Part shown: in pieces, positions 5,198-37,543 of the stretch
How positions within the stretch are numbered: position 1 is the stretch's first letter
How the letters are laid out: every line of letters starts with the position of its first letter
From: a virus
Lineage: Duplodnaviria > Heunggongvirae > Uroviricota > Caudoviricetes
Length of the DNA: 37,543 bases
Direction: 5' to 3' (one strand)
Virus record (IMG/VR): IMGVR_UViG_3300048904_000041
Coordinates: 1 to 37,543 of that record
Translations under genes and position numbers: made by a program
Notes under the pieces: generated by a model
Database searches by the model: none
Told to the model about the DNA's origin: nothing
Seen by the model: only the letters and a program-made list of their open reading frames with translations

Positions 5198-5229
5198 ACC
5201 TAATCTCCGTGATATCCGAATTGGTCATC

Positions 5230-5327: not shown

Positions 5328-5389
5328 GGTAGTCACGTGATATCCAAATCGGTAGTCACGTGATAGCGTTTTTCGTAGTCACATGTGAT
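5328..5389. repeat. Three direct repeats, 23-bp period, palindromic core TCACGTGA
   Basis: GGTAGTCACGTGATA at 5328 and 5351; CGTAGTCACATGTGAT at 5374; related copy at 5208-5231. Confidence 0.9.
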
Positions 5390-5400
5390 GAAATAAATGC

Positions 5401-7438: not shown

Positions 7439-8332
7439 TTGAAGGCTATCATTACAGTAGGTATCTCTTGCAGCGGTAAGTCGTCGTTCGCAGCTCAGAT
7501 GGTTGAGCAACATAACTACACGGAAATCAACCGTGACTGGATTCGATTCAACGTCGTGATGCCGGGTGCTGATTGGCGTAGCTACAAGTTCACAAAAGCA
7601 CGTGAGGAAGAAGTGACCGACGTTGCTGATAAGCTCCTGATGGAATCGTGGGCTGCTGAGCGAAACATTATCATCAGCGATACCAACCTGAACACTGGTC
7701 GTCGTCAATCTCTTATCAATAAGCTTGAAGACCTCGGTTATAATGTTGAAGTGAAAGTGTTCGATGTCACCTTTAAAGAAGCAGTGAAGCGTGATAACTA
7801 TCGTCTGAACGGTGTTGGTCAGGACATTATTTACAAACAGCTTCAGCAATTCAACGATATGTCGATGCGTAAAACCTACGACTTCCAAAATGCTCAGGAT
7901 CGACACCTTCCTGCTTGTATCATTGTTGATGTTGATGGTACGATTGCTGAAATGCATGACCGTGGCCCTTTTGAATGGAAGAAGGTTGGTCAGGATAAGC
8001 CACGTAACGTAATTATGCAGATGGTTCGTGCATACAAGCGTATGGGTTATGATATTATCATTTGTTCTGGTCGTTCTGATGAATGTTACCATGAAACAGA
8101 AAAATGGCTTGACAAACATTTGGGTTACGATTACTATGACGATATTCACATGCGTAAGGCTGGTGACTTCAGGAAAGACGATGCTGTAAAAGAGGAAATC
8201 TTCTGGAACCACATCGCCCACCAGTACAGTGTTTATGCCGCGATTGATGATCGACCTCAGATGATTCGTCTGTGGCACGAACTGAAGATTCCAAACGTCA
8301 TCGCCGTAGCTGACCCATATATTGAGTTTTAA
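7439..8332 (+). CDS. pseT: Polynucleotide 5'-kinase/3'-phosphatase
   Basis: P-loop GISCSGKS, INRDWIR, C-terminal HAD motif DVDGT, SGR, IDDR. Confidence 0.93.
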   Translation: MKAIITVGISCSGKSSFAAQMVEQHNYTEINRDWIRFNVVMPGADWRSYKFTKAREEEVTDVADKLLMESWAAERNIIISDTNLNTGRRQSLINKLEDLGYNVEVKVFDVTFKEAVKRDNYRLNGVGQDIIYKQLQQFNDMSMRKTYDFQNAQDRHLPACIIVDVDGTIAEMHDRGPFEWKKVGQDKPRNVIMQMVRAYKRMGYDIIICSGRSDECYHETEKWLDKHLGYDYYDDIHMRKAGDFRKDDAVKEEIFWNHIAHQYSVYAAIDDRPQMIRLWHELKIPNVIAVADPYIEF

Positions 8333-8341
8333 GGAGATAAA

Positions 8342-9181
8342 ATGATTTCTTATTCGTTTGGTAATATCAATACACAGGTTAACGTGTTTAAATACCCCGA
8401 CGGCTGTGTGGACATCGACCTGAATACTGGTAGTCAGCAGCCTGACAATAGTGTTAGTGCTATCGAAGTCACTGTTAAATTCGGTGATGAAATGGGGGTT
8501 AATGATACATTGGTGGCTCTTGCTCTCACCCGTGAAGCTCTTCGTCATCAATACCCACTAGCTAACATCTCATTGTTCATGCCATACCTTCCATACGCAC
8601 GTCAAGATCGTCGTGAGCGTAATGGTATGGCACACCCATTGAAAGTTGTTGGGAAGTCGATTAATGACATGGGGTTTGCATATGTTTTCGTTGCAGATGC
8701 ACACAGCACTGTTGCCGAAGCATGTATTGACCGACTCCACATCATTACACAGTTCGAAATCTTTGGTCGTGTGAAACAGAGCTGGCGTGAAGTTTACATT
8801 GTCGCTCCTGATGCTGGTGCTACCAAAAAGTGTGAAGCGTTTGCTAAGCTGGTTGGTGCTGCTGGTGTTATCACATGTGCAAAGGATCGTGTGAACGGTA
8901 AGGTTCAGGGTATTAAAGTGCTTGACACTGTTCCAAAAGGTGCTAAGCTGTTTGTACTTGATGACCTGTGTGATGGTGGTCGTACCTTCATCGAAGTTGC
9001 TAAAGAGCTTGAGACCATCACTCTTGGTTACGGCGATCTAGAATTGGCAATCACACACGGTCTATTTACAAAAGGTGTTGACATCGTAGCTGTACATTAT
9101 GATAAGATCTACACCACTGATAGCTACATTAGTGACAAGTCCAATCGGAACGGTCAAATTGAAGTAATCGAACTCAAATAA
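8342..9181 (+). CDS. prs: Ribose-phosphate pyrophosphokinase family (probable Adps of NARP1)
   Basis: PYLPYARQDR, APDAGA, VLDDLCDGGRTF, THGLF motifs. Confidence 0.9.
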   Translation: MISYSFGNINTQVNVFKYPDGCVDIDLNTGSQQPDNSVSAIEVTVKFGDEMGVNDTLVALALTREALRHQYPLANISLFMPYLPYARQDRRERNGMAHPLKVVGKSINDMGFAYVFVADAHSTVAEACIDRLHIITQFEIFGRVKQSWREVYIVAPDAGATKKCEAFAKLVGAAGVITCAKDRVNGKVQGIKVLDTVPKGAKLFVLDDLCDGGRTFIEVAKELETITLGYGDLELAITHGLFTKGVDIVAVHYDKIYTTDSYISDKSNRNGQIEVIELK

Positions 9182-19930: not shown

Positions 19931-20424
19931 CAACACATACTCACGACGAACTTTGTGACATCGCCGCCCGTTTCCTGAAAAGGAATGGGTTTGGTGTTGT
20001 GTTTCACGATAAGTTCCGGGCGATTACACACAACGGAGAGCAACCAGATTGCCTCGGGTTCCGTACAGGCACAAGCTGCTTGATCGAATGCAAGACTTCA
20101 CGTGCTGATTTCATTGCCGACCGTAAAAAGAAGTTCAGAATTGCACCAGAATTGGGCATGGGCAACTTCCGATTCATGATGACACCTGAAAATCTCATCA
20201 CGGTCGATGAATTACCCGCAAATTGGGGCTTGCTAACTGTATCAAAGGCTGGTAGAGTTAAGAAAGTGCATGGTTGGCCTGCTAATACAGGTTGGCATGA
20301 CCATCCATTCCACGCAAGCAAGGCTTGTGAAGTCGATTACCTGTACTCTGCCTGTCGGCGGATGGAAATCAGGGGTCATTTAAAAGAAGTTTATGAGGGG
20401 TTGCCAAATGTCGCTTTTCGGTAA
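19927..20424 (+). CDS. PD-(D/E)XK nuclease-like protein (MmcB-like)
   Basis: QPDCLGF...IECKTSRADFIADRKK. Confidence 0.7.
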   Translation: MTTHTHDELCDIAARFLKRNGFGVVFHDKFRAITHNGEQPDCLGFRTGTSCLIECKTSRADFIADRKKKFRIAPELGMGNFRFMMTPENLITVDELPANWGLLTVSKAGRVKKVHGWPANTGWHDHPFHASKACEVDYLYSACRRMEIRGHLKEVYEGLPNVAFR

Positions 20425-20617
20425 GAAATATCGGGTAATCAAAGTACAACGTGAAGGATATTACACGATCTACAGTGTACAAAAACGAGTATTGTGGTTA
20501 ATATGGGACGATGTAGGACGTTCATTTAATACGAAGCAAGATGCTTTTGACTACATTTATCGTCGTGAGATTGACGAATTAAAACCTGTGATTACTGTGG
20601 AGAAAGAAGATGTTTAA
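20408..20617 (+). CDS. Hypothetical protein, 69 aa
   Basis: GAGGGG RBS. Confidence 0.6.
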   Translation: MSLFGKKYRVIKVQREGYYTIYSVQKRVLWLIWDDVGRSFNTKQDAFDYIYRREIDELKPVITVEKEDV

Positions 20618-20831
20618 ACGATTTAAGCTTGTCAAAAACTGGCACACGCCGACCGAATTTTCAATTCGGATTTACGAACGTCGATGGTTATTCTTCTATA
20701 CATACATCATCGGTGGGTTTGATTCTGTAGAAGATGCCGAGCGTCGTGTTAATGCAATATATGAATCTGAAGCAGAACAGAAAGCATTCATCAAAAGCTT
20801 CCCTAAAAATACCGTGGAGAAACGACTGTGA
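20610..20831 (+). CDS. Hypothetical protein, 73 aa
   Basis: GGAG RBS. Confidence 0.6.
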   Translation: MFKRFKLVKNWHTPTEFSIRIYERRWLFFYTYIIGGFDSVEDAERRVNAIYESEAEQKAFIKSFPKNTVEKRL

Positions 20832-21169
20832 GTGAGTATTTCAAGGATCTTGCCCAGCGGGCAGGTGAGGCATTCTTTGCGAGTGAAGCGAGAAATTACT
20901 ACGGTGAAGTGTTCACCGTCGATGATGGACAGGATGTCTATGAGATTGATATCACTGTTCGACCAGTTGACAAACCTTCCGCACATGAACTACGCTCGAA
21001 AGCAGAGTTCGACCTTGAAAATGTAAAGAAGAAGCTTTACGATCTTGAACACGCTGTGTTCCACGCACTTGACGACTCATGTGATACAGAACATGGTGAT
21101 TACACCATTCTTCGAATGGATTTCAACAGATTGTGCGAACTTGTACCGGAGGATTGGAAACATGAATAA
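20828..21169 (+). CDS. Hypothetical protein, 113 aa
   Basis: GTGA overlap, GGAG RBS. Confidence 0.7.
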   Translation: MSEYFKDLAQRAGEAFFASEARNYYGEVFTVDDGQDVYEIDITVRPVDKPSAHELRSKAEFDLENVKKKLYDLEHAVFHALDDSCDTEHGDYTILRMDFNRLCELVPEDWKHE

Positions 21170-21473
21170 ACAATCTTTCGTAGACTCTTTCATGGAAGGC
21201 TTGTTTTTGACAGACGGGGCCGTAGTGGCCCCCAGCTCACATGACCACGAAGTAAAACGCCGAATGCGTACACTTGTAGGTATGGTGTTCGATGAACGTC
21301 AGAAGACCAAAGAGTTGGTGACAAGAATCGAACAGATCGACTCCGATATGGCAGATGCCAACATTCAAGTCAAGTGCCGTTCATGTGAAAACTATTACAC
21401 ACTCGATTATGACGTTTCTGAATTCAGTGCCGACATGTCATACTGTGGTGGAAGTCCACAGTGTTGCCCATAG
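21162..21473 (+). CDS. Hypothetical protein, coiled coil plus Cys-rich C-terminus, 103 aa
   Basis: GGAGG RBS; CRSC...YCGGSPQCCP. Confidence 0.7.
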   Translation: MNKQSFVDSFMEGLFLTDGAVVAPSSHDHEVKRRMRTLVGMVFDERQKTKELVTRIEQIDSDMADANIQVKCRSCENYYTLDYDVSEFSADMSYCGGSPQCCP

Positions 21474-26482: not shown

Positions 26483-26712
26483 TGACAACATTCTGCACAC
26501 GACACAACAAACCAATACACGATATCACACCAAAGTGGTGCAGAGACTGCCACACAGCAGCATACCACTTCCCATTCGATACTCACTATAAAGACCATCC
26601 AGTGGCAATCGAACAACGTGAGAAACACCATCGTGAAGTAAAGATCGCCCAAGCAAGACTCAACATAACACCAATACCACCAAAACGTAGATACTCAAAC
26701 AAGCCCGCCTAA
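26482..26712 (+). CDS. Hypothetical protein, 76 aa
   Basis: TAATG coupling; CTRH...CRDC. Confidence 0.6.
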   Translation: MTTFCTRHNKPIHDITPKWCRDCHTAAYHFPFDTHYKDHPVAIEQREKHHREVKIAQARLNITPIPPKRRYSNKPA

Positions 26713-26728
26713 CAGCGGGTTTCTTTTT
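26701..26728 (+). terminator. Rho-independent terminator ending the plus-strand block
   Basis: AAGCCCGC-CTAACA-GCGGGTTT followed by CTTTTT. Confidence 0.8.
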
Positions 26729-26729
26729 G

Positions 26730-27840
26730 CCCAAAATTCACAACCCCCAATTTTTAAAAACCCGAATTCCCACCAATAACATATTCTCCCATAACCAAAA
26801 TCCCCTGTCAACACCAGCGGGTGAGTCATAGGGCTGAAATCAACGGATATCGATACATAGGGCTTAACGGCCCCTGCCAAATGAGAATGCCTCCCATTCA
26901 AGGAATCCCAAAATCCGACCGAGGGCCATTTGTCAAGGAATTTCGACCCTTAGGTAAATCCCGTGCCCAAGCACCACCATGCGAAACGATTCTCATTCAA
27001 TCGCATTTACCATAATACTCATTACACGTAACGACGCATCCCCTGCCCCGTGCTCACCACCATTGACTCACACTATCGATTGATTGACATGGATAGACTA
27101 GACCTACATTACGTGCACGTTGCATGCACTGCCCACCATCCCTATAGAATACACCCAATTCCACACTATTTCAAATAGAATCTCTCAATAACCAACTGAC
27201 ATCCAATTATCTACAACTATATCGCCCAACATCGATACAATCACCTGATATTCTCACTCAATTTGAGAGGAAAGGAAAAGGAGGCTTAACATTATCCCAA
27301 TGAGAATGTAATCACGAATCCTATCCCACTATGTGAGAATGACACCAGAATAGGTTAATCGAGAGAGGTAGTAAGATTGAGAGAGTATGTAAGCCACGGC
27401 CTATAAGGCTTTGAGAGAAGAGGTATATTGTGTGCTATGCACACGGTAGGGTATGATGTACAGCGTTGCTGTGATGGGCCTTGTAGGGGCTTAGAGAGGG
27501 AATGGCTACGCCATTGAGAGAAAGGAATACATTATCATCCTGATAATGAGTCTGATAATGCACGTGTTCCACGTGGAACGTGAGTATGGTGTTTTGAAAG
27601 GCTTTTGCCTTTGCTTTTCCTTGCTTTTGATTTACCAGTGTGGGCAAGAAATGTACGGAGTACATTGGGAAATGTAATTCAAGACGGGACGTCTTAGGGA
27701 ATATTTCTATCTGTGTATACAGATAATACTATACTTCTTAAGTAATATCTTTTAGAATAAGGGAGAGGTTTATCCTCTCCTTCCTCCTAAGCTTTTACAG
27801 TACATATCGTTTACTCCGCAAACAAGAGGAGCAACGGCAA
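26730..27840. other. ~1.1-kb non-coding region between convergent blocks; probable genome-end/terminal-repeat region
   Basis: No ORF with a convincing RBS; compositional skew inversion near 27262; convergent transcription. Confidence 0.55.
27565..27580. promoter_or_regulatory. parS: parS-like palindrome 1 (TGTTCCACGTGGAACG)
   Basis: Matches the chromosomal parS consensus TGTTNCACGTGAAACA in the Pseudomonas-type variant. Confidence 0.75.
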
Positions 27841-27844
27841 ATGC

Positions 27845-27874
27845 ATTTTACCGCAATTGGTTGACGTTTGTCAA
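27845..27874 (-). promoter_or_regulatory. sigma70-type promoter pointing into the non-coding region
   Basis: TTGACA-18 nt-TAAAAT. Confidence 0.5.
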
Positions 27875-27923
27875 TAGCTGTGGTATGCCGATTGTGCATA
27901 GGGTATGCATTTGACGCATACAG

Positions 27924-27942
27924 CAAAGCCCCTTTCGGGGCT
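27924..27942 (-). terminator. Hairpin/weak terminator
   Basis: AGCCCC-GAAA-GGGGCT followed by only TT. Confidence 0.5.
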
Positions 27943-27951
27943 GAGCTAGGT

Positions 27952-28134
27952 TTATGCCAATGCGCGTTTAACCTTCTCGAAAATACCGATCCAGCAATTA
28001 GAGCGTTTAACCCATTTACCCTCTTTAAGGATTTCGCAACGCCATGCACCATCCTTACCTTGAATAGCCCGACTGTTGCCGTATTGGTGAGCTGTTTCGG
28101 TGCCTTTGTTGATGCTGTAGATTGATGCTTTCAT
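27952..28134 (-). CDS. Hypothetical protein, 60 aa
   Basis: MKASIYSI...; just downstream of a promoter. Confidence 0.6.
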   Translation of the reverse strand: MKASIYSINKGTETAHQYGNSRAIQGKDGAWRCEILKEGKWVKRSNCWIGIFEKVKRALA

Positions 28135-28168
28135 TTGTCTTAATCCGTTGTTGGTTTCGATAGGTGTT

Positions 28169-28196
28169 ATTCTACAGCGTTTAGAGAACAGATCAA
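28169..28196 (-). promoter_or_regulatory. Early sigma70 promoter
   Basis: TTGATC-16 nt-TAGAAT. Confidence 0.65.
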
Positions 28197-28205
28197 GCAT
28201 TATTT

Positions 28206-28430
28206 TCAGGTTGTAGCACTAATACATTTCGCAGACGAAAGGTGTTCATCATTGATTTCATAGTAACCCAACTGCTTTTCGAGCTGTCTGTAGTAATCCC
28301 ATGCTTCTGCTCTGTCGTCTGACTGGAATATCAACTCCCACACGTGGCAACGAAAATTGCCGTCCCATTGGCTTATGTGTTTGTAGACAGTGTAACGCTT
28401 TGTCACTTGTCCTATGTTCTTACGTTTCAT
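28206..28430 (-). CDS. Hypothetical protein, 74 aa
   Basis: ATGA overlap. Confidence 0.6.
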   Translation of the reverse strand: MKRKNIGQVTKRYTVYKHISQWDGNFRCHVWELIFQSDDRAEAWDYYRQLEKQLGYYEINDEHLSSAKCISATT

Positions 28431-28687
28431 CCGTTCACCAGCGCTGTTAGTGCTTTCAGTTCGAATTCAGGAAGCTTGAACAAGCCTTGTGTACTTGTCA
28501 TGTATACACCGGTCGTATCTAGGTGTAACTGCCATTGATCACCACTAATGCGGAACTTGCCGATTTCAACACCTTTGCTTATAAGGTATCCATTACTGTC
28601 TACCCAATATATCGGTTCAACTTCACCTACAACAGTATAGGTAAAAGAATCATCAAAGGTATTAAGCTCTTGATTAAGTCTTTTCAT
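28427..28687 (-). CDS. Hypothetical protein, 86 aa
   Basis: ATGA overlap, GAGG RBS. Confidence 0.65.
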   Translation of the reverse strand: MKRLNQELNTFDDSFTYTVVGEVEPIYWVDSNGYLISKGVEIGKFRISGDQWQLHLDTTGVYMTSTQGLFKLPEFELKALTALVNG

Positions 28688-28908
28688 TGGTGCGACCTCA
28701 GTGGAGTAAAGCCCATTTCACAAAGCATGATGTAAAGCTCTTGCATGAGCTGGCTTTGCTCATTTATGTCAAAAGCTTTCCAGAACTCAATGCCAACGCA
28801 ATCTTTAAATTCAGGTGCGAACTGATGGTCAGAAAACGCCATAAATCGAATTGCCGCTTCTTCCATAATTTGACCGAGTTTTGCAGCTTGTTGTGTGTTG
28901 AGGCTCAT
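28684..28908 (-). CDS. Hypothetical protein, 74 aa
   Basis: GGAG RBS downstream of promoter cassette. Confidence 0.7.
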   Translation of the reverse strand: MSLNTQQAAKLGQIMEEAAIRFMAFSDHQFAPEFKDCVGIEFWKAFDINEQSQLMQELYIMLCEMGFTPLRSHQ

Positions 28909-28956
28909 TGGTCTCTATCTCCGTTGAGAAAGGCCTATTCCTCTCTCTTGATGTTA

Positions 28957-28984
28957 ATTCTACAGCAGTAGTCAAACACGTCAA
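28957..28984 (-). promoter_or_regulatory. Early sigma70 promoter (cassette type)
   Basis: TTGACG-16 nt-TAGAAT followed by CATCAAGAGAGAGG. Confidence 0.8.
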
Positions 28985-28987
28985 GCT

Positions 28988-29164
28988 TTATACATGATGT
29001 ACTTCAATCTTTGTAATGTAGACGTTCCCACGACCTGCATATCCAGAGGTTTCCTTTTGAATCCATTCCCGTGCTTCTGGTACACTCATTTCACGATCAA
29101 CGTAAAATGTCCAAGTGCGTTCCCGATGAACATCACAGTCACATTTCATAACCCATACGTTCAT
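28988..29164 (-). CDS. Hypothetical protein, 58 aa
   Basis: Manual translation MNVWVMKCDC...; GAGGTG RBS. Confidence 0.6.
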   Translation of the reverse strand: MNVWVMKCDCDVHRERTWTFYVDREMSVPEAREWIQKETSGYAGRGNVYITKIEVHHV

Positions 29165-29172
29165 ATTACACC

Positions 29173-29370
29173 TCAGCTAAACAGATAAATCACCAATATG
29201 AAAACTATAGTCACAGCAAGGAAGATAGCTAATGACAATATCAGACCACCGAAGAACGCGAACAACGATAGCTCAACCTTGCCGAAAACAGTACCGTCTG
29301 AGTTTTTCCAGATACGGTGAAACATCAGCACCCACGTAATCAAGAAGCAAACCACCAATAGCTTATTCAT
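29173..29370 (-). CDS. Membrane protein, 65 aa
   Basis: Two hydrophobic segments; GGAGG RBS. Confidence 0.65.
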   Translation of the reverse strand: MNKLLVVCFLITWVLMFHRIWKNSDGTVFGKVELSLFAFFGGLILSLAIFLAVTIVFILVIYLFS

Positions 29371-29519
29371 TATTCATCCTCCTTACAAGCATCACATGCA
29401 TTGCAGTCGAAACAGCAAGGGCAACCACAGTCATTGCCACCACATGAGCAGCAATTGTACATATCGCTACACGTAAGACCGTTGAACTTGAACCATTCAC
29501 ATTGATTCAAGATTGTCAT
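29370..29519 (-). CDS. Cys-rich microprotein, 49 aa (12 Cys)
   Basis: Manual translation MTILNQCEWFKFNGLTCSDMYNCCSCGGNDCGCPCCFDCNACDACKEDE; coupled at both ends. Confidence 0.6.
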   Translation of the reverse strand: MTILNQCEWFKFNGLTCSDMYNCCSCGGNDCGCPCCFDCNACDACKEDE

Positions 29520-29776
29520 GCAATCACCTTTGCCCAAACCGCCATTTTGTTACCTTGGATAGTGTAACCTTTACGCCACGACTTAGGGAATGCACCATTA
29601 CCTTCAACTTCACCAACAACCTGAGTATCGAAAGCAATGGTGTCACCTTGACGGTCAGGGCAGAAATCGGATTCCATAGGGTACACACGACGTTCTGTGA
29701 GCAAGAAGCATACACCGCAGTTCAGTACAACATCACCTACTTGAAGTTCATGAGTGTTTGCGCGTTCGTAGTTCAT
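29516..29776 (-). CDS. Hypothetical protein, 86 aa
   Basis: GGAG RBS downstream of promoter cassette. Confidence 0.7.
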   Translation of the reverse strand: MNYERANTHELQVGDVVLNCGVCFLLTERRVYPMESDFCPDRQGDTIAFDTQVVGEVEGNGAFPKSWRKGYTIQGNKMAVWAKVIA

Positions 29777-29823
29777 GTTACTTACTCCGTAATGAATGGG
29801 GCGTTTCCCCTTTCTTGATGTCT

Positions 29824-29851
29824 ATTCTACAGGGTTTAGAAAACATGTCTA
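29824..29851 (-). promoter_or_regulatory. Early sigma70 promoter (cassette type)
   Basis: TAGACA-16 nt-TAGAAT followed by CATCAAGAAAGGGG. Confidence 0.7.
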
Positions 29852-29950
29852 CATCTATTTTTGCATAACAAACAGGTTTCTTATAACCACTCAGGAATAG
29901 CGGGCACCCTCCCTGTTTGTTTCGTGCCTGACTCCACACCGTGAAACACC

Positions 29951-29979
29951 ATAGTACAGACAAAGAAAAGCCCCGTCAA
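29951..29979 (-). promoter_or_regulatory. sigma70 promoter overlapping the terminator arm
   Basis: TTGACG-17 nt-TACTAT. Confidence 0.6.
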
Positions 29980-30000
29980 CCATTAAGATTGCGGGGCTTT
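29962..30000 (-). terminator. Rho-independent terminator
   Basis: AAAGCCCCG/CGGGGCTTT stem followed by TCTTT. Confidence 0.75.
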
Positions 30001-30001
30001 G

Positions 30002-30017
30002 TGTTCCACGTGAAACC
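30002..30017. promoter_or_regulatory. parS: parS-like palindrome 2 (TGTTCCACGTGAAACC)
   Basis: 15/16 match to TGTTNCACGTGAAACA; lies between a stop codon and a terminator. Confidence 0.75.
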
Positions 30018-30346
30018 TAGTTACCTACATTTTGCTCGTTGATGATCGCAGCATCGAATGCTTTGATAACAGAGTCATGGTCATTTTTATCGTTGAATAC
30101 TGCAAAACTATTGTGGTGGTAGTTAATACCCTCAGCTTCAAACCACGTACGGACAACACGCTTAAGAGCTTTGTCTGCTTCGCTGTAAGGTGTATTCTCT
30201 TCAAGTTCACCGGATGCTTTGGCAATTGCACCCAATGCACAGAAACAGGTATTATCACCGAATTCTGAGGAAAAATCACCCTGCATCCAGTTGGAAGGGT
30301 CAGCAATGATTTCACGTGCAGCTTTCAAAATCTCAGAAGTTTTCAT
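30017..30346 (-). CDS. DUF6197-like protein, paralog B
   Basis: NWMQG..CFCALGAI..FND..H..VI.AFD; family name recalled, not searched. Confidence 0.65.
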   Translation of the reverse strand: MKTSEILKAAREIIADPSNWMQGDFSSEFGDNTCFCALGAIAKASGELEENTPYSEADKALKRVVRTWFEAEGINYHHNSFAVFNDKNDHDSVIKAFDAAIINEQNVGN

Positions 30347-30672
30347 TACAGTTCATCCTTTTCAGCGAGTTGAATAGCGACGTCAAAGGCATGCAATACT
30401 TCCGTATGCGTGTGACTGTCGTTGTAAGGTGCAAAACTTGTTAGCGGATCGTGATATTCATCAAGTTGCAAGGCTGCCATTCTCAAATAGTAACCGGCAC
30501 CTTCATTACCACAAACCGTAATGTCAAATTCATCTTCAGCGCTTAAAGTTTTAACAACAGCTCCTAATCCGCAAAAGCAAGTTCGATTCTTTGCTGACCA
30601 TTCACCTTGAATCCAGTTCTCAGGGTTGATGATCAATTGCTTTGCTTGTTTCAACACTTCAGAAGTTTTCAT
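30346..30672 (-). CDS. DUF6197-like protein, paralog A
   Basis: NWIQG..CFCGLGAV..YND..H..VL.AFD. Confidence 0.65.
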   Translation of the reverse strand: MKTSEVLKQAKQLIINPENWIQGEWSAKNRTCFCGLGAVVKTLSAEDEFDITVCGNEGAGYYLRMAALQLDEYHDPLTSFAPYNDSHTHTEVLHAFDVAIQLAEKDEL

Positions 30673-30852
30673 TTATTTAATCTCACTCATTTCAACGGTT
30701 ACTTTGAATTGTTTATACACACCATCATCCATTAAGGAGATGATATATTCCTCTTTACCACCAATTGCAATATCGAAAATCACATTGATGTCGGAAAGCT
30801 CTACATGGTTGAACTGCTTCGCAATCATTGCCTTAACTGCTGCGTTTTTCAT
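30673..30852 (-). CDS. Hypothetical protein, 59 aa
   Basis: Manual translation MKNAAVKAM...; AGGTG RBS. Confidence 0.55.
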   Translation of the reverse strand: MKNAAVKAMIAKQFNHVELSDINVIFDIAIGGKEEYIISLMDDGVYKQFKVTVEMSEIK

Positions 30853-30860
30853 CCAATCAC

Positions 30861-31121
30861 CTATTGATTGATTTTACGTTGTTTGTGACCTACAAGCTTA
30901 CCATCCTTGAACACGTCACGCAACTCATACATTTCAGAACATTCGCCTTTGTAGACGTCTTGATCTAGGATCAACTCTCTAAAATTGATTGACGCACCAT
31001 TTTGAAAGCGTATCGAAGGGGTGCTGCAATAGAACATTGTCAGCTTACCGTTGGCCCTACCACGTTCTTTCATGAGTTTCACAACTGTACTACTTGCTTT
31101 GTTAAAGTCAAACTCTTTCAT
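30861..31121 (-). CDS. Hypothetical protein, 86 aa
   Basis: ATGA overlap, AAGG RBS. Confidence 0.6.
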   Translation of the reverse strand: MKEFDFNKASSTVVKLMKERGRANGKLTMFYCSTPSIRFQNGASINFRELILDQDVYKGECSEMYELRDVFKDGKLVGHKQRKINQ

Positions 31122-31399
31122 TTGAAAACCTTTACCCATTCTGAGCCGTTCCATTGCATAACAACATCAGAGCCACCGTTTGCCGAATATTTGCAATCAC
31201 TTGCTTTGTTCTCGACACACGTTTGATAAATTTTGGCGTATTGGTTTTGGTCGAACATTTTCATTGTTTCACCTAACGGGATTTTCTTTTCCGGTTTAGG
31301 TGGTGCGAACGATGCACACACCATCCACGTGCAAATAATTACAGTAATACCGATTACGAACTGAACAAACGGGTCACGCAAGATTGAATCACGTTTCAT
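31118..31399 (-). CDS. Membrane-anchored hypothetical protein, 93 aa
   Basis: N-terminal TM segment. Confidence 0.65.
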   Translation of the reverse strand: MKRDSILRDPFVQFVIGITVIICTWMVCASFAPPKPEKKIPLGETMKMFDQNQYAKIYQTCVENKASDCKYSANGGSDVVMQWNGSEWVKVFK

Positions 31400-31666
31400 T
31401 TGATAGCACCGGTCAGTTTACCAACGATTACAGAAGCGACAACCCCAGCGATTACGATTTCAACCGCGTATGTAGCCATTACGACATAACCATAAAATGT
31501 CATTACTTACCTTCCTTGATTCTACGTTGTTTCCAACTGGTGTCAACGGATTTGGTGTTCTTTTCGCAAACGATCAGTTCACGGGTGAAGAGGTCACGGA
31601 ATACACGCTGAGTCATTTTCTTAGTCTCTAGTATTGAGTGAGGGCTTTCCCTCTCTCTTGATGCCT

Positions 31667-31694
31667 ATTCTACTCTAATTAGAGAAGTGGTCAA
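31667..31694 (-). promoter_or_regulatory. Early sigma70 promoter (cassette type)
   Basis: TTGACC-16 nt-TAGAAT followed by CATCAAGAGAGAGGG. Confidence 0.8.
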
Positions 31695-31843
31695 GCATTA
31701 ATTTCAATTTCTTTTACTGCGTAACGATAAGCACCATAATCATTGTCCAGCTTGTCAACTCTTGAACGAGCACGGTTTTTGTTAGAGTAAGGCTTACCGA
31801 CTTGTTCACCAGTCTTGCGGTCTACAACGATATACTTAATCAT
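31691..31843 (-). CDS. Hypothetical basic protein, 50 aa
   Basis: MIKYIVVDRKTGEQVGKPY..RAR..VDKLDNDYGAYRY; AGGA RBS. Confidence 0.65.
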   Translation of the reverse strand: MIKYIVVDRKTGEQVGKPYSNKNRARSRVDKLDNDYGAYRYAVKEIEINA

Positions 31844-31890
31844 TACGAAATTCCTAGTTAATGAATGGGTGTTTCCCTTTCTTGACGCCC

Positions 31891-31918
31891 ATTCTACACC
31901 CTTTGAGTATGGTGTCAA
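31891..31918 (-). promoter_or_regulatory. Early sigma70 promoter (cassette type)
   Basis: TTGACA-16 nt-TAGAAT followed by CGTCAAGAAAGGG. Confidence 0.85.
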
Positions 31919-32232
31919 CCATTTATTTTACTCATGTGGTGATCTATCACTTCCTTTGCATCTGCGATTTTGTTGAACGTGTAGTCGCAGAACACTTGGT
32001 TATCATCAGACACGACATAGACACGACCAGACTTGTCTGAGTACAAGTCACAGCCTTTGTACTCGGCGTCATGAGTAACCCAAATTGCATTCATTTCAGC
32101 AATCTTGTTAAGGGCTTGATGAATCATTGGGTAAACAATCTGTTCACCGCGTGGGTTAGTGACGTAGTGCCCACCATTCACCATCATGAACACTTTGTAA
32201 CCATCGTTTGACTTTACGGCTTGACAAATCAT
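31915..32232 (-). CDS. Hypothetical protein, 105 aa
   Basis: AAGGTG RBS. Confidence 0.7.
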   Translation of the reverse strand: MICQAVKSNDGYKVFMMVNGGHYVTNPRGEQIVYPMIHQALNKIAEMNAIWVTHDAEYKGCDLYSDKSGRVYVVSDDNQVFCDYTFNKIADAKEVIDHHMSKING

Positions 32233-32233
32233 T

Positions 32234-32473
32234 TCACACCTTCATATAGCGTTGCATGTGGTTCATCATGGCAGAAACAGCCACACCTTTGGGAACCGGT
32301 TGTGTTACAGGACTACGGTTGATGGTAGTAACGAACAGACCGGACTCTACCTTAACCACTGCAAGAGTGTCAAGCCATTCATGTTCAGTTGTCTGCATTT
32401 CAGCTTCAAAGACGACTTGACCTTGAATGCGTTGGTTGTCGATGGTCATTGTAACGCGATCATTCATAGACAT
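32234..32473 (-). CDS. Hypothetical protein, 79 aa
   Basis: Operon context. Confidence 0.65.
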   Translation of the reverse strand: MSMNDRVTMTIDNQRIQGQVVFEAEMQTTEHEWLDTLAVVKVESGLFVTTINRSPVTQPVPKGVAVSAMMNHMQRYMKV

Positions 32474-32526
32474 TTCAATAACTCTTTACAGGCCGACAGT
32501 AGCGATAGAGCCGAAGCGGGTTGTTC

Positions 32527-32877
32527 TCAGTAGGTGTTCACCGCCTGAATGACAGGGATACCATGGTGGCTACTCTCAGTGTCTACGGACAGCACGAAAC
32601 CATCAGTGAAGTGAATGTGTACGACGTTTACAGAACTGGCATCAACGCTTGCCACAGTGCGACCTAAAGCCTTGTCAAAACCCCGCATTTCATCCTCATT
32701 GATGAATTCGAAGTCCTCACGAAGGATGAACCAGAAGTCAGAGCTATCAAGCTTCTCAGCATAGTATTCATCATCAAGGTCGGCACCGTGACATTTCAGT
32801 CTTACATGCTCACCCACTTTAAAGTCGTGATAACGGGATTCTTTGACGATTCGAACGATACTGTCATACAGACTCAT
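32527..32877 (-). CDS. Hypothetical protein, 116 aa
   Basis: GAGG RBS. Confidence 0.7.
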   Translation of the reverse strand: MSLYDSIVRIVKESRYHDFKVGEHVRLKCHGADLDDEYYAEKLDSSDFWFILREDFEFINEDEMRGFDKALGRTVASVDASSVNVVHIHFTDGFVLSVDTESSHHGIPVIQAVNTY

Positions 32878-32881
32878 TTGA

Positions 32882-33190
32882 TTACCTCAGCAGTTGATTT
32901 AGTTTGGTTGTCAGGTCATTACTTGACTTGCTACCGTTGTGCTTATCAGGGTGTACCAGACGTCGAATAGCCTTGAGTTCATCAGTCGTGAACTGAGAAC
33001 TGGCACCGGCGAACCCGTAAATCTCACCATGGTCTAAGAACGCTTGACCTCCTTTAGCGTTCACTTTCGAAACAAGATCATCCCATTTGGCACGTAACCG
33101 TGTAATTTGAGCAGCAAGTAAAGCAACTTGAAGCTGTGCATCATTACGGTCATTCACCACCTTGTCATGTTTACTCTTCGACACGAACAT
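32882..33190 (-). CDS. Coiled-coil protein with C-terminal HPD (J-domain-like) motif
   Basis: ELKAIRRLVHPDKHNGS; GAGGTG RBS. Confidence 0.6.
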   Translation of the reverse strand: MFVSKSKHDKVVNDRNDAQLQVALLAAQITRLRAKWDDLVSKVNAKGGQAFLDHGEIYGFAGASSQFTTDELKAIRRLVHPDKHNGSKSSNDLTTKLNQLLR

Positions 33191-33344
33191 GTGTCACCTC
33201 AACGATTTCCGAGTCTGGAAAATCTTCGCGTGCCATATCGATAGCACGGGCACGATTTGGTGTACCGTATTTAATTGCAAAGTTGAAACTTTCACCATTT
33301 ACAGAATCGGAGAAAAGAACACGTGATTCAAAACGAAAATACAT
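33171..33344 (-). CDS. Hypothetical protein, 57 aa
   Basis: Manual translation MYFRFESRVLF...; AAGGAG RBS. Confidence 0.55.
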   Translation of the reverse strand: MYFRFESRVLFSDSVNGESFNFAIKYGTPNRARAIDMAREDFPDSEIVEVTHVRVEE

Positions 33345-33784
33345 GGTCAACGTAGTTGCTCCTTAAGTTTAGCTTTCGACAAATTAGTTGGTTCGACAGT
33401 ATCGAAAGTTACGATCCATATTTGATTAACAAGTTTGGTACGCATAAACACGATGCCGTCATTTTCACCGAGTTTCCCGAACAATCGAATGTTTTTCATA
33501 ACTAACTCAAACTCACCAAACTAACGCATAATTAATAGAAGTTGACTATGCTGCATGATTTGAAACAAAGTCAATACTACACTAGTTCCGCCGGGTAAAG
33601 CAAGAATATATTTAAGCACTCAACACCTTTACAATTACATCAAACAAACCTTTATGATAAGCCCACGCAATACTAACAAGTAGTACGTCAGCAGCCAAGA
33701 TCCACACACCAATTTCTTTTAATTCTTTATCCATTTCAGATGCTCCTTTGTTATGTGTTCAGTATAGCACCTGAAACGGTGGTG

Positions 33785-34036
33785 TCAAGGGATTTGTTCG
33801 TCTTTAATTTCTTTCGTTTCGAATTCGATAGACACGATTTCAAAAACTGTCTCACCGATTTGATATTTGTCAAGCCACTTGTTCAGCTTTTGTTCATCAT
33901 CCCAATTGTTGAGGAACTCAGCATAGACAGCTTTGGTATTTTGATCAGCGTTTACACTAGCTGGAGCTGTGTCCACGATGTAATCAGAGCAGGTTGACAT
34001 TGTACATACGATTGCGATGGATGCAAAAATTGACAT
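33785..34036 (-). CDS. Hypothetical exported/membrane-anchored protein, 83 aa
   Basis: Hydrophobic N-terminus with Cys; GAGGTG RBS. Confidence 0.7.
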   Translation of the reverse strand: MSIFASIAIVCTMSTCSDYIVDTAPASVNADQNTKAVYAEFLNNWDDEQKLNKWLDKYQIGETVFEIVSIEFETKEIKDEQIP

Positions 34037-34080
34037 GTTACACCTCTTGTTTGATTTACCAGTGTTTGTAAGATTTGTTG

Positions 34081-34108
34081 ATTATAGCCTTTTTGGTAAG
34101 CTTGTCAA
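34081..34108 (-). promoter_or_regulatory. sigma70 promoter
   Basis: TTGACA-16 nt-TATAAT. Confidence 0.85.
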
Positions 34109-34109
34109 C

Positions 34110-34316
34110 TTATTTGAACATTGTATAACCATGGGCGTGCAGCATCTTTACATGAACTTCATTACGACGACTAACCACACCGTTCACGTATGCACGTGTC
34201 CATAGATCACCGTTACCTTCATCGTTTATTTCAACAGTCCACTCATGTGCACCTTGAGCGTACTCAAGCACAACCTGACCAGCATCAATAAACTTAATCA
34301 CTTCTTGGCTTACCAT
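34110..34316 (-). CDS. Hypothetical protein, 68 aa
   Basis: GAGGTG RBS. Confidence 0.7.
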   Translation of the reverse strand: MVSQEVIKFIDAGQVVLEYAQGAHEWTVEINDEGNGDLWTRAYVNGVVSRRNEVHVKMLHAHGYTMFK

Positions 34317-34346
34317 GTTACACCTCTTTATCAGTTTGTGACGCCC

Positions 34347-34374
34347 ATTCTACACTAGTTAGAAAAGGCGTCAA
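34347..34374 (-). promoter_or_regulatory. Early sigma70 promoter
   Basis: TTGACG-16 nt-TAGAAT. Confidence 0.8.
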
Positions 34375-34383
34375 CCATTATTT

Positions 34384-34635
34384 TCACAGTACCGGCTTAA
34401 ATTTGCAAAGGATGTGCGGTGGGGCAATGAACTGCAAAGCGTAAGCCTGTGCGTCCTCAATGTTGCGAAAGGGTGTAAACTCCCAATCCACTCCCACACC
34501 ACCTGAGTGGGTGCTAACCTCAAAGTGACACCCCTTGTAAACTGGCTCTTCACTCTCATAGATACGTGCTACACGATCATACGGCACTTTGTAGGCCAGA
34601 TAAGTAGCAGTGTACACAGCAATACGACGACTCAT
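34384..34635 (-). CDS. Hypothetical protein, 83 aa
   Basis: AAGGGTG RBS before MSRRIAV. Confidence 0.65.
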   Translation of the reverse strand: MSRRIAVYTATYLAYKVPYDRVARIYESEEPVYKGCHFEVSTHSGGVGVDWEFTPFRNIEDAQAYALQFIAPPHILCKFKPVL

Positions 34636-34645
34636 GATATCACCC

Positions 34646-34858
34646 TTAAGCTTTGGTAGGAAGGTTGTTAAACCACTGAGCGTAGGCACGACGTCCCATT
34701 TTCTGCTCAAGTGCTTTGTTCATTGCATCAAACATGATAGAGGGCCACTTTGGATCATTCCAGTCGTCAATGATGGACGCTTGAAGACCTTCAACACTCA
34801 TCATGGCGGCCTTGCGTGCCATTTGTGCAACGTGCTTCCTGTATTCACGGTTACCCAT
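34646..34858 (-). CDS. Hypothetical protein, 70 aa
   Basis: GAGGTG RBS. Confidence 0.65.
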   Translation of the reverse strand: MGNREYRKHVAQMARKAAMMSVEGLQASIIDDWNDPKWPSIMFDAMNKALEQKMGRRAYAQWFNNLPTKA

Positions 34859-34972
34859 TTTGCTCACCTCTCATCGTTAGATAAAGTGGCAGCTTGGCGG
34901 CTATCCAATCATACGCTTTGTGGGGTGTCCCACCAGTTCCAACCGTCTTGCTGTCTACATGGTCAGTTTACA

Positions 34973-35278
34973 TCATTCACAACCCTTGTCTACTACCGTT
35001 CGTCGACCTATCACATCCAACGACTGCTGACAGTAAATCTTGGTGAAGACCCTAGGCGGTCTACCTTGAAGATTTGGATCATCACCCTTGACACCGGGTC
35101 TACTTTCGAGTAGACGAAGCTTCTGCATGCGTTGCAGCTCGTTAGAGACCGCTTTACTAACATCGATGTCACCGAATTCATACAAGCCGTTCATGCTTGA
35201 CAAAACCTGAGTTACAGTGAACGGTTTATCAAAGCTGGCAACTGTCATTTTAATGCATTGACGTAGAAAATCATTCAT
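34973..35278 (-). CDS. Putative winged-HTH protein (start uncertain, 35278 or 35293)
   Basis: FTVTQVL..SKAVSNELQRMQKLRLLE...GRPPRVF wing motif. Confidence 0.55.
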   Translation of the reverse strand: MNDFLRQCIKMTVASFDKPFTVTQVLSSMNGLYEFGDIDVSKAVSNELQRMQKLRLLESRPGVKGDDPNLQGRPPRVFTKIYCQQSLDVIGRRTVVDKGCE

Positions 35279-35537
35279 CACTTGCGTCGTCATGGTTAAT
35301 AATGTTGATGATATCTTGTAGTGTGTTGACCAATCCAGCCGGGTCAGTAGCGGCGAACACTTCCAAGCGTTCACACATTTTAATCTTGACACCGATTGAT
35401 TGACCTGTGAGTGACATGCTATCAATCAACGCACCAAACGCATTAGTTAAAACCACCTTCTGATGTTTGTCGGCAGCGCTTCGGGTCAAATGAATGGTAC
35501 CGTCAGAAGTTTGGTATGCTTCGATTAAGCGAGTCAT
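35271..35537 (-). CDS. Hypothetical protein, 88 aa
   Basis: GGGGTG RBS; AYQTSDGTIH motif. Confidence 0.65.
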   Translation of the reverse strand: MTRLIEAYQTSDGTIHLTRSAADKHQKVVLTNAFGALIDSMSLTGQSIGVKIKMCERLEVFAATDPAGLVNTLQDIINIINHDDASDE

Positions 35538-35538
35538 G

Positions 35539-35787
35539 TCACACCCCGTAATAAAATGAACTGGTTTCAATCTTCATGCAATCCCCAAAGTAGGATGCAA
35601 TCCAAATACGTTGACCTTGACGTTCGCAAGTGATGCCGTCGCCTAAGTCTTCCTCACACCAGAAGTCCACACACTCCAGCAAGTACAGACCACGATATTC
35701 AGCGCCTTCAGTTGGGCACAGTTGGCGAACTTTGTACTTGTTACCACCTTCAAGGAGCATCAGGGTTGTATCAACTTCGAATTTCAT
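35539..35787 (-). CDS. Hypothetical protein, 82 aa
   Basis: GGAG RBS. Confidence 0.65.
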   Translation of the reverse strand: MKFEVDTTLMLLEGGNKYKVRQLCPTEGAEYRGLYLLECVDFWCEEDLGDGITCERQGQRIWIASYFGDCMKIETSSFYYGV

Positions 35788-35868
35788 GATTGCTACTCCG
35801 TTGTTTGTCAGTTGTCTTACTAGCAGAGCCTCATAGTATCATAAGGCTCTACGATAAATCAACTGACG

Positions 35869-36192
35869 TTATTCTTCCTCTTCTTCATCGAGTTCAAATT
35901 CGTCACCGTCGATGAACTCGATACCGCTGGAATCTTCGCGCTCTAGTTGCTCTTCAAGTTCTGCTTGGATTCGGTTTTCTTCTTCACCCTTACCGCAACG
36001 GAAAGCCACCGCGTCAGCATCTTTAAGCAAAGTACCTTGATCGAAAGTCTGACCACACACTTCAACCGTTCCGTAAATGTCGTTCAGGATTTCAGCGTAT
36101 TCGTCATCTGTCAGAGAAACCTCACCACCTGAAACAGTGTAACCGTTGAACTCAGATACGTTTTCGATGTTCCAGAATTGTTGTGCGTTCAT
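35869..36192 (-). CDS. Highly acidic protein, 107 aa (DNA-mimic candidate)
   Basis: 32 Asp/Glu vs 5 Lys/Arg; AAGG RBS; own promoter. Confidence 0.7.
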   Translation of the reverse strand: MNAQQFWNIENVSEFNGYTVSGGEVSLTDDEYAEILNDIYGTVEVCGQTFDQGTLLKDADAVAFRCGKGEEENRIQAELEEQLEREDSSGIEFIDGDEFELDEEEEE

Positions 36193-36254
36193 TTTGCTAT
36201 ACCTTTTAGAGAAGTGGTTGACCTTTTGGTCTGTTGTGTTGCTTTCTGTGGTCT

Positions 36255-36282
36255 ATTCTACACCAGTTAGAAAACACGTCAA
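36255..36282 (-). promoter_or_regulatory. Early sigma70 promoter
   Basis: TTGACG-16 nt-TAGAAT. Confidence 0.8.
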
Positions 36283-36322
36283 CAACTATTTTCATCTTTT
36301 TCAAATCTTTTTCACAGACAAC

Positions 36323-36348
36323 AAAAAGCCCCACAAACGCGGGGCTTT
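36323..36348 (-). terminator. Rho-independent terminator
   Basis: AAAGCCCCGC/GTGGGGCTTT stem followed by TT. Confidence 0.8.
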
Positions 36349-36357
36349 GGGTGAATC

Positions 36358-36705
36358 TTAATCGTTTTTAGGCACCTTGCGACCTGAGAGAACGTTGTTG
36401 ATAACGTACAGGTCTACACGAATTCGATCTTGCTCAGGATTGTTACCACGCTTTACAACGTGGGTGTGGCTATAGTCATTATAACCACAATAGCTGAACA
36501 AGCGCTCTTTATGTTCAATGCCAAGTGCAGCACGACCAGCGTGATAAATATCGGAACAGTAGCGGCTTGCCTCACCTGCACAGTAACCAGCAAGAAGGGT
36601 AATCAATGCCAGTTGCTCAGCCGACAGACCAATAAGGTCGAATGTTTCACTTTCAGGCGTGACAACTTCAACAACTTCAGGTTGGTATACGCGAACTGCT
36701 TTCAT
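36358..36705 (-). CDS. Hypothetical protein, 115 aa
   Basis: Directly follows upstream stop. Confidence 0.65.
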   Translation of the reverse strand: MKAVRVYQPEVVEVVTPESETFDLIGLSAEQLALITLLAGYCAGEASRYCSDIYHAGRAALGIEHKERLFSYCGYNDYSHTHVVKRGNNPEQDRIRVDLYVINNVLSGRKVPKND

Positions 36706-36921
36706 TTAATTAGTACCCAATTTAACTTTATCAAGCATTTCCTGACGAACAACGATACTATAACCGTTGCTCAAGTCCGGGTCGGGAATATCACCGAATG
36801 CTTCAGTGATGGTATGCAATCGATAATACAGATTACTGTTGATATCGGAAACTGCGGTTGATCCCGTCAGAATCAACAAAAGCTTTGCATCTTCTTCCGA
36901 AAGTTCGATGTTGTATTTCAT
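36706..36921 (-). CDS. Hypothetical protein, 71 aa
   Basis: AAGGTGG RBS. Confidence 0.65.
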   Translation of the reverse strand: MKYNIELSEEDAKLLLILTGSTAVSDINSNLYYRLHTITEAFGDIPDPDLSNGYSIVVRQEMLDKVKLGTN

Positions 36922-37053
36922 TTACTTACCACCTTTACTAATCTTGAAGCCCCAACGGCGACCGGTTGCTGCGTCTTTACCATGGTCTACAACCTTACCG
37001 TTCTTGGAACCGAAAGCACGGGCGAGAGTACGGGTAGCGAAGAAAATAGTCAT
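36922..37053 (-). CDS. Hypothetical basic microprotein, 43 aa
   Basis: Manual translation MTIFFATRTLARAFGSKNGKVVDHGKDAATGRRWGFKISKGGK; AGGA RBS. Confidence 0.6.
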   Translation of the reverse strand: MTIFFATRTLARAFGSKNGKVVDHGKDAATGRRWGFKISKGGK

Positions 37054-37094
37054 GTCATTTATTCCTGATTAGTGTTTCGTTGGTTTGTGCAGCA

Positions 37095-37123
37095 AGTTTA
37101 ATCAAAGGTGCTGAGGTTGTCAA
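37095..37123 (-). promoter_or_regulatory. sigma70 promoter
   Basis: TTGACA-17 nt-TAAACT. Confidence 0.75.
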
Positions 37124-37138
37124 CACCTTCTGTTAAAC

Positions 37139-37315
37139 TTACTCAGGTAGACCTTTGAAAGTTTTAGTTTCAGCAGGATTCATACCATTATCATGCTCAG
37201 GGATTGCAAGGTCAAACTGGCGACCATCAATCAATACGCTCAGTAGACGACTTCCGTCGCAGAAGGTTTCGATAACAGCAGGGATAACTACTTGCGCTTT
37301 ATTTGGATTTACCAT
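37139..37315 (-). CDS. Hypothetical protein, 58 aa
   Basis: Manual translation MVNPNKAQVV...; GGAG RBS. Confidence 0.6.
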   Translation of the reverse strand: MVNPNKAQVVIPAVIETFCDGSRLLSVLIDGRQFDLAIPEHDNGMNPAETKTFKGLPE

Positions 37316-37349
37316 TTGTTTTACTCCGTTTGTTTTCCTGATGTCGTCT

Positions 37350-37377
37350 ATTCTACATTGTTCGGTTTCTGTGTCAA
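37350..37377 (-). promoter_or_regulatory. Early sigma70 promoter
   Basis: TTGACA-16 nt-TAGAAT. Confidence 0.85.
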
Positions 37378-37543
37378 GCGGCTTTTTGCATCATTTTCGA
37401 GATATTTGCGAACATGTTAATAGCATCATCAACATTCAGCGGGGTATTAGGATCTTCAAAGATACCTTTGATATTGTTAGCCACTGCACATACAGCGATG
37501 CAATTGCCGGGAACATAACCCTTTGTACTATCAATGCGCTCAA
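37374..37543 (-). CDS. C-terminus of an HNH/His-Me-finger-like protein (runs off window end)
   Basis: Manual translation ERIDSTKGYVPGNCIAVCAVANNIKG... Confidence 0.6.
   Translation of the reverse strand, partial: ERIDSTKGYVPGNCIAVCAVANNIKGIFEDPNTPLNVDDAINMFANISKMMQKAA

Follow-up and report, generated by a model that had tools for sequence, protein, structure and literature searches.

Five parS sites recognized by the host protein Spo0J are present on the genome of phi29, a virulent phage of Bacillus, and there is evidence that it uses the host segregation machinery and becomes entrapped in spores (Meijer et al. 2005, as summarized in Castilla-Llorente et al. 2009, PMC2731898); the same summary attributes host Spo0J parS sites to Bacillus phage Nf as well. 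Centromere-like sites are also present on the phage genomes of P1 (parABS) and N15 (sopAB and its centromeres). Here, we describe two palindromes in a window of 37,543 nt, i.e., bases 1-37543 of the 102,477-bp virus record IMGVR_UViG_3300048904_000041 (hereafter G000; GC content 43.9%; CheckV completeness 99%). Judged by their sequence and its conservation, both palindromes are real, selected, host-type parS sites, and ParB-CTP of the host probably loads on the early region of the phage through them. The DNA of this stretch is present in root and soil metagenomes, and habitat and relatives together indicate that G000 is most likely a virulent phiPMW-like (Plaisancevirus-related) phage of a soil or root Pseudomonas.

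As far as phi29 is described in that source, G000 resembles it in being a virulent phage without ParB, ParA or lysogeny genes of its own, in having several copies of a host-type parS, and in that these copies are kept across related phages. However, phi29 is a podovirus with a protein-primed genome of 19 kb and a spore-forming host, whereas G000 is ~100 kb in size and has a presumed non-sporulating Gram-negative host. Also unlike in phi29, the sites in the clade of G000 are located in the early region or in a convergent gene junction, often in a slot between a stop codon and a terminator, and in some lineages their centre is altered through avoidance of the hexamer CACGTG. Because Pseudomonas does not sporulate, the spore benefit of phi29 cannot apply as such, and the benefit must differ. 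P1 and N15 are temperate and have their own ParA and ParB as well as private centromeres, while G000 has neither protein, no integrase and the chromosomal site of the host. The chromosomal sites parS1 to parS4 of P. aeruginosa share with the phage sites the same 16 bp (identical or with one or two outer differences), the same half-site variants and the arrangement of a few high-affinity sites clustered within kilobases (PMC4368675, PMC5961200). By contrast, the phage sites are on a virus of 41-45% GC, are not beside oriC, have no parAB operon nearby and reach a density ~30-70 times the chromosomal average. The principle is known from phi29; new here are a large phage of a non-sporulating Gram-negative host, the stop-parS-terminator slot and the interplay with restriction avoidance. 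In the open-access literature, we found no report of host parS on lytic phages of Pseudomonas or other Gram-negative bacteria.

Two parS sites and the motif of Pseudomonas ParB

The two sites, in window coordinates, are as follows:

27565..27580, no strand assigned: parS site 1, TGTTCCACGTGGAACG, with a perfect 14-bp palindromic core, in a gene-free convergent junction
30002..30017, no strand assigned: parS site 2, TGTTCCACGTGAAACC, whose two arms read GTTCCAC and GTTTCAC

Statistics, footprint and host match support the reading of these palindromes as selected parS sites. First, the core GTTYCACGTGRAAC has exactly two matches in the complete 102,477-bp genome, i.e., sites 1 and 2, while the composition-based expectation is 0.0014 cores per genome. 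The probability of at least two cores is ~1e-6 per genome and 1.3e-7 per window, so that ~0.03 such windows are expected in 250,000, and among 300 third-order Markov simulations, 299 had no core and one had a single core. An earlier note on this DNA had pointed out two full parS-type 16-mers and considered chance an unlikely cause; both 16-mers are present where it placed them, and the calculation agrees with its view of chance. CACGTG is frequent in G000 (52 occurrences vs 18.6 expected by composition), which might favor the accidental occurrence of two palindromes centred on this hexamer; nevertheless, the low expectation, the simulations and the 13 sites counted in four related genomes (see below) refute chance, to which we assign a negligible probability. 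Compared to the generic parS consensus TGTTNCACGTGNAACA, site 1 has two mismatches and site 2 has one, in outer positions only, and both 14-bp cores are exact. The earlier note also drew attention to a half-site at 29941-29947. This heptamer is present, as GTGAAAC, but it carries no significance: the four parS half-site heptamers occur 11-16 times each in G000, which is near the Markov expectation and not an enrichment.

Second, the 13 sites were aligned in the early-transcription sense together with twelve flanking positions on each side. Positions 2-15 reach an information content of ~2 bits, the outermost positions 1 and 16 still have 1.0-1.2 bits, and the flanks have ~0, a profile that matches the 16-bp footprint of parS.

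Third, the sites agree with what ParB of Pseudomonas binds. ParB ChIP-seq in P. aeruginosa identified six enriched half-site variants, including GTTCCAC, GTTTCAC and GTTCCAT, and the motif tolerates C to T changes at arm positions 4 and 7 only (PMC5961200). The 26 arms of the 13 phage sites read GTTCCAC (18 arms), GTTTCAC (5) or GTTCCAT (3); thus, all 26 are among the ParB-bound heptamers of that study, and the two arm positions that vary among the phage sites are precisely 4 and 7. In PAO1, parS2 and parS3 read TGTTCCACGTGGAACA, while parS1 and parS4 end in C (PMC4368675); site 1 matches parS2/3 at 15 of 16 positions. Exact cores are present in all 41 sampled Pseudomonas genomes (the genus including P. 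antarctica), with 1-5 per genome of 3.7-8.7 Mb compared to 0-1 for the reversed control, and both arm variants, including GTTTCAC, occur in these genomes. The presumed host genus, with whose parS the earlier note had wished the palindromes compared, therefore has the same sequence, and a single phage genome equals a whole Pseudomonas chromosome in its number of high-affinity sites.

Location and conservation in related phages

The following features surround the sites:

26722..27915, no strand assigned: convergent junction of 1.2 kb without genes, between plus-strand middle and minus-strand early genes, containing site 1
27952..37543, minus strand: early region of small ORFs with repeated strong sigma-70-type promoters (TTGAC..TAGAAT)
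29960..29999, minus strand: early-operon intrinsic terminator that follows immediately after site 2, with a GCCCCG stem, a 16-nt loop and a minus-strand T-run
30017..30346, minus strand: early gene of 109 aa, DUF6197 (PF19698), whose TAG stop overlaps site 2 by one base

In agreement with the earlier note, both sites are outside genes. Site 1 is in the junction, where the ORFs that overlap it are mechanical only, with a homologue in none of five relatives. Site 2 belongs to the early region, 2.4 kb inside it, where it occupies the gap between the DUF6197 stop codon and the terminator. By contrast, the notion that the sites are near a putative genome end is not supported: a 100.8-kb contig from one soil metagenome run, 95-99% identical to G000, closes on itself, and the ends of the G000 record are therefore arbitrary.

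Searches of 26500-31000 against GenBank phages with megablast and blastn gave no or tiny matches only, and relatives were identified via the NAD-salvage genes and the portal protein. These place G000 next to the Pseudomonas putida phage phiPMW (Plaisancevirus, NC_041880) and the P. plecoglossicida phage SYP (OQ183418), both with ~74% portal identity, and next to several IMG/VR genomes. The paper on the phiPMW genome makes no mention of parS-like sites. We scanned 21 records with GTTYCAYRTGRAAC and a reversed control pattern; a looser pattern, TGTTNCANNTGNAACA with two mismatches, matched at about the frequency of its reversed control and was replaced by the stricter core. Exact cores number two in G000, three in G001 (within 4 kb), three in phiPMW and five in SYP (within 7.4 kb), a total of 13 compared to 0.03 expected, and G002, a 68-kb fragment, has two degenerate copies of the site. 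Beyond the phiPMW-like group, none of the 21 records has an exact core. One-mismatch matches occur singly in G004, G007 and G008, and are no commoner than with the reversed control (0-1 per genome). The cores are always within 2.4-7.4 kb of each other in genomes of >100 kb, and all clustered sites of the clade are confined to the syntenic early region or convergent junction. In the portal tree, G000, phiPMW, SYP, G001, G002, G003, G004 and G009 form a clade (support 100/99), and sites are present in five or six of these eight genomes, whereas all eight outgroup genomes lack them. The tree fits one gain of the sites followed by losses as well as it fits repeated gains.

The earlier note had proposed to check whether the sites are conserved amid diverging flanks, and this pattern is what we find in the relatives. 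The orthologue of site 2 is at G001 75491-75506, directly downstream of a DUF6197 homologue, and the terminator that follows it is also the same, including the loop. Together, site 2 and terminator form a block of 115 bp that is 87% identical between G000 and G001, whereas the neighboring upstream proteins are 43% identical in amino acid sequence. Junctions syntenic to that of G000 are found at phiPMW 20016-21281 and at the start and end of the SYP record, and junction sites are located at G001 79476, at phiPMW 20515 and 20735, and at SYP 294 and 963. In SYP, the first ~350 bp (1-360) are repeated at the end of the record (106823-107173), and the site at 295 has the same flanking sequence as that at 107117; a sixth match at the record end is thus due to assembly overlap in the deposited "linear" genome. 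A further SYP site directly abuts the end of gp20 (7671-9125, 484 aa, annotated "DNA sulfur modification protein"). We considered gp20 as a shared ParB-like reader and rejected it, as G000, phiPMW and G001 have no homologue.

Five or six of the 13 sites begin 0-2 nt past the stop codon of an early gene, several of them with an intrinsic terminator following, and the stop-parS-terminator slot recurs at SYP 963 and 7655. This placement would suit palindromes that act as RNA hairpins within the 3' UTRs of early mRNAs, in processing, in stability or as an aid to termination, and the altered centre of the phiPMW sites (see below) would fall in the loop of such a hairpin, with the GUUCC/GGAAC stem kept. 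However, four of the five asymmetric sites would give a C.A mismatch in the early-sense transcript, and the G000 site alone would give a G.U wobble. Moreover, the junction sites are past the terminators of the operons, where no gene is predicted, positions 1 and 16 are conserved though outside the would-be stem, the sites have no U-tract of their own, and an Rfam search of 26500-30500 (E<=1) gave no match. A hairpin of five pairs also provides no reason for an exact copy of the host centromere. We consider a function as RNA hairpins very improbable.

The early region is built as a mosaic of cassettes: near-identical strains from soil and other metagenomes replace or delete the cassettes at 27942-28683, 28909-29805 and 30346-30875, with cuts at promoter/terminator boundaries, while the modules that flank the swapped cassettes remain 95-99% identical and the junction and the site-2 module are retained. 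Two near-identical strains have lost 1 nt at 30016, and the 14-bp core of their site 2 is unharmed. Such a mosaic could in principle spread ParB-binding but selectively neutral passengers, carried on mobile early-gene cassettes or acquired from host DNA, and two or three clade members without sites would fit this explanation. On the other hand, the flanks have neither host-like sequence nor host-like composition (phage GC is 41-45%), conservation ends exactly at 16 bp, and it is the site-bearing modules that the strain variants retain. Neutral 16-mers would also not last at two to five copies in genomes with ~50% identical proteins and, under restriction avoidance, they would be lost rather than re-tuned at the centre. 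We therefore regard neutral passengers as distinctly unlikely.

Candidate phage readers and avoidance of CACGTG

The earlier note reported no parA or parB gene in the window, and this holds for the window and for the entire genome: ParB_N, TIGR00180, HTH_ParB, AAA_31 (ParA) and integrase are absent at E<=1 from the 99%-complete G000. ParB_N is also absent from phiPMW, SYP, G001 and G002, and no cognate parA/parB genes are beside the sites as in a ParABS cassette of the P1/N15 type. With neither protein encoded by the phage, the palindromes would have to be read by host ParB.

An alternative is that a phage DNA-binding protein not recognisable as a ParB homologue reads the palindromes, which would then be operators or organising sites that merely resemble parS. 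The early ORFs mostly encode unannotated small proteins, any of which could bind DNA, and all three phiPMW sites have the same asymmetric centre. G000 also encodes a sequence-specific protein of this kind, i.e., a wHTH/DnaD_N-like initiator (4751-5197, minus strand) that faces three copies of the iteron GGTAGTCACGTGATA at 5328-5390, with a TTGACA..TAGAAT promoter immediately downstream of them; these iterons contain a CACGTG core and are 22 kb away from the parS sites. A replication origin is probable within 4751-5400. The homologous initiator of phiPMW, gp115 (annotated as replication initiation protein), is associated with three unrelated iterons, GGACAAAATGTCC. Since the initiator iterons differ wholly between G000 and phiPMW while the parS-like sites stay the same, the initiator is not the reader. 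Furthermore, the ParB-family domain is absent from the five genomes, and the genes that are common to the site-bearing genomes and missing from G009 and G004 encode metabolic or replication enzymes and small ORFs without Pfam match, with no recognisable DNA-binding protein among them. An unrelated protein would need to arrive independently at the host site in each of its 16 positions as well as at the tolerance spectrum of ParB, and the phiPMW centre is accounted for by genome-wide avoidance of CACGTG, as described next. A phage-encoded reader, which the earlier note had named as an outcome that would refute its reading, is accordingly unlikely.

All three phiPMW sites read TGTTCCACATGGAACA, and the 103-kb phiPMW genome contains no CACGTG where ~20 are expected. 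Five other 6-bp palindromes are also at zero in phiPMW (AGGCCT, CAGCTG, CTGCAG, GGTACC and GTCGAC), and zero counts of several palindromes are a signature of restriction-site avoidance. A different set is at zero in G000 (AGTACT, CGATCG, CTCGAG, GAGCTC, GGATCC, CCCGGG and CCGCGG), where CACGTG is over-represented even against its Markov expectation (52 vs 36.7; 18.6 by composition); avoidance of 6-bp palindromes is, thus, strong and lineage-specific in these two phages. CACGTG occurs 52 times in G000, 25 times in G001 and 24 times in SYP, which are exactly the genomes with canonical sites. Elsewhere, it is absent from G002 (68 kb) and G004, occurs twice each in G003 and G009, and 0-3 times each in G005-G008 and G010-G012. 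In the CACGTG-avoiding lineages, either the centre of the site is altered (phiPMW, G002 and possibly G004, at 10648) or the site is absent (G003, G009). That 15 of 16 positions are kept while the forbidden hexamer is removed speaks for selection on the remainder of the site. In vitro, the affinity of ParB is higher when the CACGTG core is intact (PMC4368675), and PAO1 parS5, which has a CA centre and two poor arms, is not bound in vivo (PMC5961200). In P. antarctica, a chromosomal GTTCCACATGGAAC is found within 100 kb of three exact parS cores.

Probable host ParB loading, its possible purposes and the layout of the region

We suggest that the two palindromes would be functional copies of the host centromere parS, selected in the early region and the convergent junction. 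ParB-CTP dimers of the host would load at the phage sites and slide outward, and the sliding ParB would form a partition-type complex over a few kilobases of phage DNA. Both the binding by host ParB and what binding achieves are matters that we infer.

Several observations weigh against this proposal. The earlier note had suggested that a lytic phage without ParB keeps host-type parS to recruit host ParB; conservation, the match to the host and the lack of a phage reader support this suggestion, but two members of the same portal clade, G003 and G009, have no site, and a third, G004, has one weak candidate. The early region of G009 is syntenic yet site-free, and the site-less G003 and G009 argue that the sites are accessory and dispensable for lytic growth. 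In position, site 1 and the junction site of G001 are not orthologues, the two being on opposite sides of a conserved 109-bp block; for the junction site, presence in the compartment is conserved while the exact position is not. Weaker binding of ParB is to be expected at the sites of phiPMW and G002, whose centre is altered. The exact 16-mer occurs throughout the bacteria, with >120 IMG/VR contigs and genomes of many phyla among the matches listed, and therefore does not identify the host; we infer Pseudomonas as the host genus from relatives and habitat alone. Lastly, SYP forms clear plaques, has a latent period of 20 min and a burst of 178, and encodes no integrase (PMC10580904), and 20 min would leave little time for a role in segregation during ordinary lytic growth.

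The earlier note had named pulling in of the genome, recruitment of SMC, titration of ParB and mimicry of the chromosome as purposes, and the sequence would fit any of these. If host ParB does bind, the purpose that we rank highest, though with somewhat less than even confidence, is positioning by host ParA/ParB, in which the incoming or idle genome would be placed and inherited like an origin region. Such positioning would be a Gram-negative counterpart of the Spo0J-dependent spore entrapment of phi29. Titration of ParB is a weaker possibility; it is quantitatively plausible because one phage genome equals the whole chromosome in high-affinity sites and the burst multiplies this number >100-fold. 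Weaker again is ParB-dependent loading of SMC/condensin onto phage DNA, and local transcriptional insulation of the early operons would be a rather unlikely purpose. The tight clustering of the sites in one compartment, similar to the oriC-proximal cluster of the host, favors one partition-type complex per genome and, with it, a purpose in positioning, in inheritance or in the loading of SMC. For titration alone, the sites could be anywhere; however, non-coding space is scarce elsewhere in the genome.

The compartment that contains the sites has further features. The plus-strand middle genes extend to 26712 and end at a bidirectional terminator (26701-26722), an early-operon terminator is located at ~27915-27945 on the early-gene side of the junction, and the small minus-strand early ORFs start beyond the window end and reach down to 27952. 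The DUF6197 gene next to site 2 has a tandem paralogue of 108 aa (30346-30672, minus strand; PF19698 E-values for the pair 3.9e-16 and 2.1e-11), and the two, members of a family with no known function, are the last genes of the early operon. Within the junction, the 109-bp block mentioned above (27388-27496) is 81% identical to G001 and includes the palindrome TGTGC-NNN-GCACA at 27431-27443, of which G000 and G001 have a single copy each and phiPMW has two, both in its junction, with no further copy in these genomes; regulatory site, ncRNA and packaging signal are candidate roles. The best sigma-70-type promoter match of the region is also inside the junction (27762-27874, minus strand; TTGACA, 18 nt, TAAAAT; 11/12), and together with a terminator-like hairpin ~60-75 nt downstream (27780-27762), it may specify a small RNA. 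Fur-box-like AT-rich repeats (GATAAT/ATTATC) are present beside site 1 at 27531-27560, and SYP has similar repeats at 251-275, 686 and 866-890, with 5 of 14 matches inside its 1-kb junction. We rejected the Fur-box-like sequence at 27542-27560 as part of the finding, as G000 has five matches genome-wide compared to 3-6 in shuffled sequences. No tRNAs were found near the parS sites.

Tentatively, and with more doubt than conviction, we suggest that loading of host ParB on the early region could be a general and unrecognised strategy of virulent phages of Gram-negative bacteria. A centromere-like ParB-CTP complex would give the phage positioning and inheritance by the host ParABS/SMC machinery when lytic growth stalls, e.g., in starved or slow-growing soil hosts, and the same sites would strip ParB from the host origin once the phage replicates. 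The sites would at the same time be in conflict with restriction avoidance, with CACGTG-avoiding lineages either re-tuning the centre to a ParB-readable GTTCCAT arm or losing the sites. If host ParB does load on these phages, ParB, a core segregation factor, would be a host factor of lytic Pseudomonas infection, and clustered orphan parS sites on phage contigs could mark hosts that use ParABS. Comparing the CACGTG-tolerant with the CACGTG-avoiding lineages amounts to a natural experiment of a rare kind, as the binding site is subject to two pressures of opposite direction. Cultured relatives with the same feature are available on tractable hosts, phiPMW on P. putida and SYP on P. plecoglossicida, making the question directly testable. 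Through these phages, one could address how a centromere benefits a lytic phage, be it by placement of its DNA, inheritance in stalled soil infections, loading of condensin or sabotage of host segregation.

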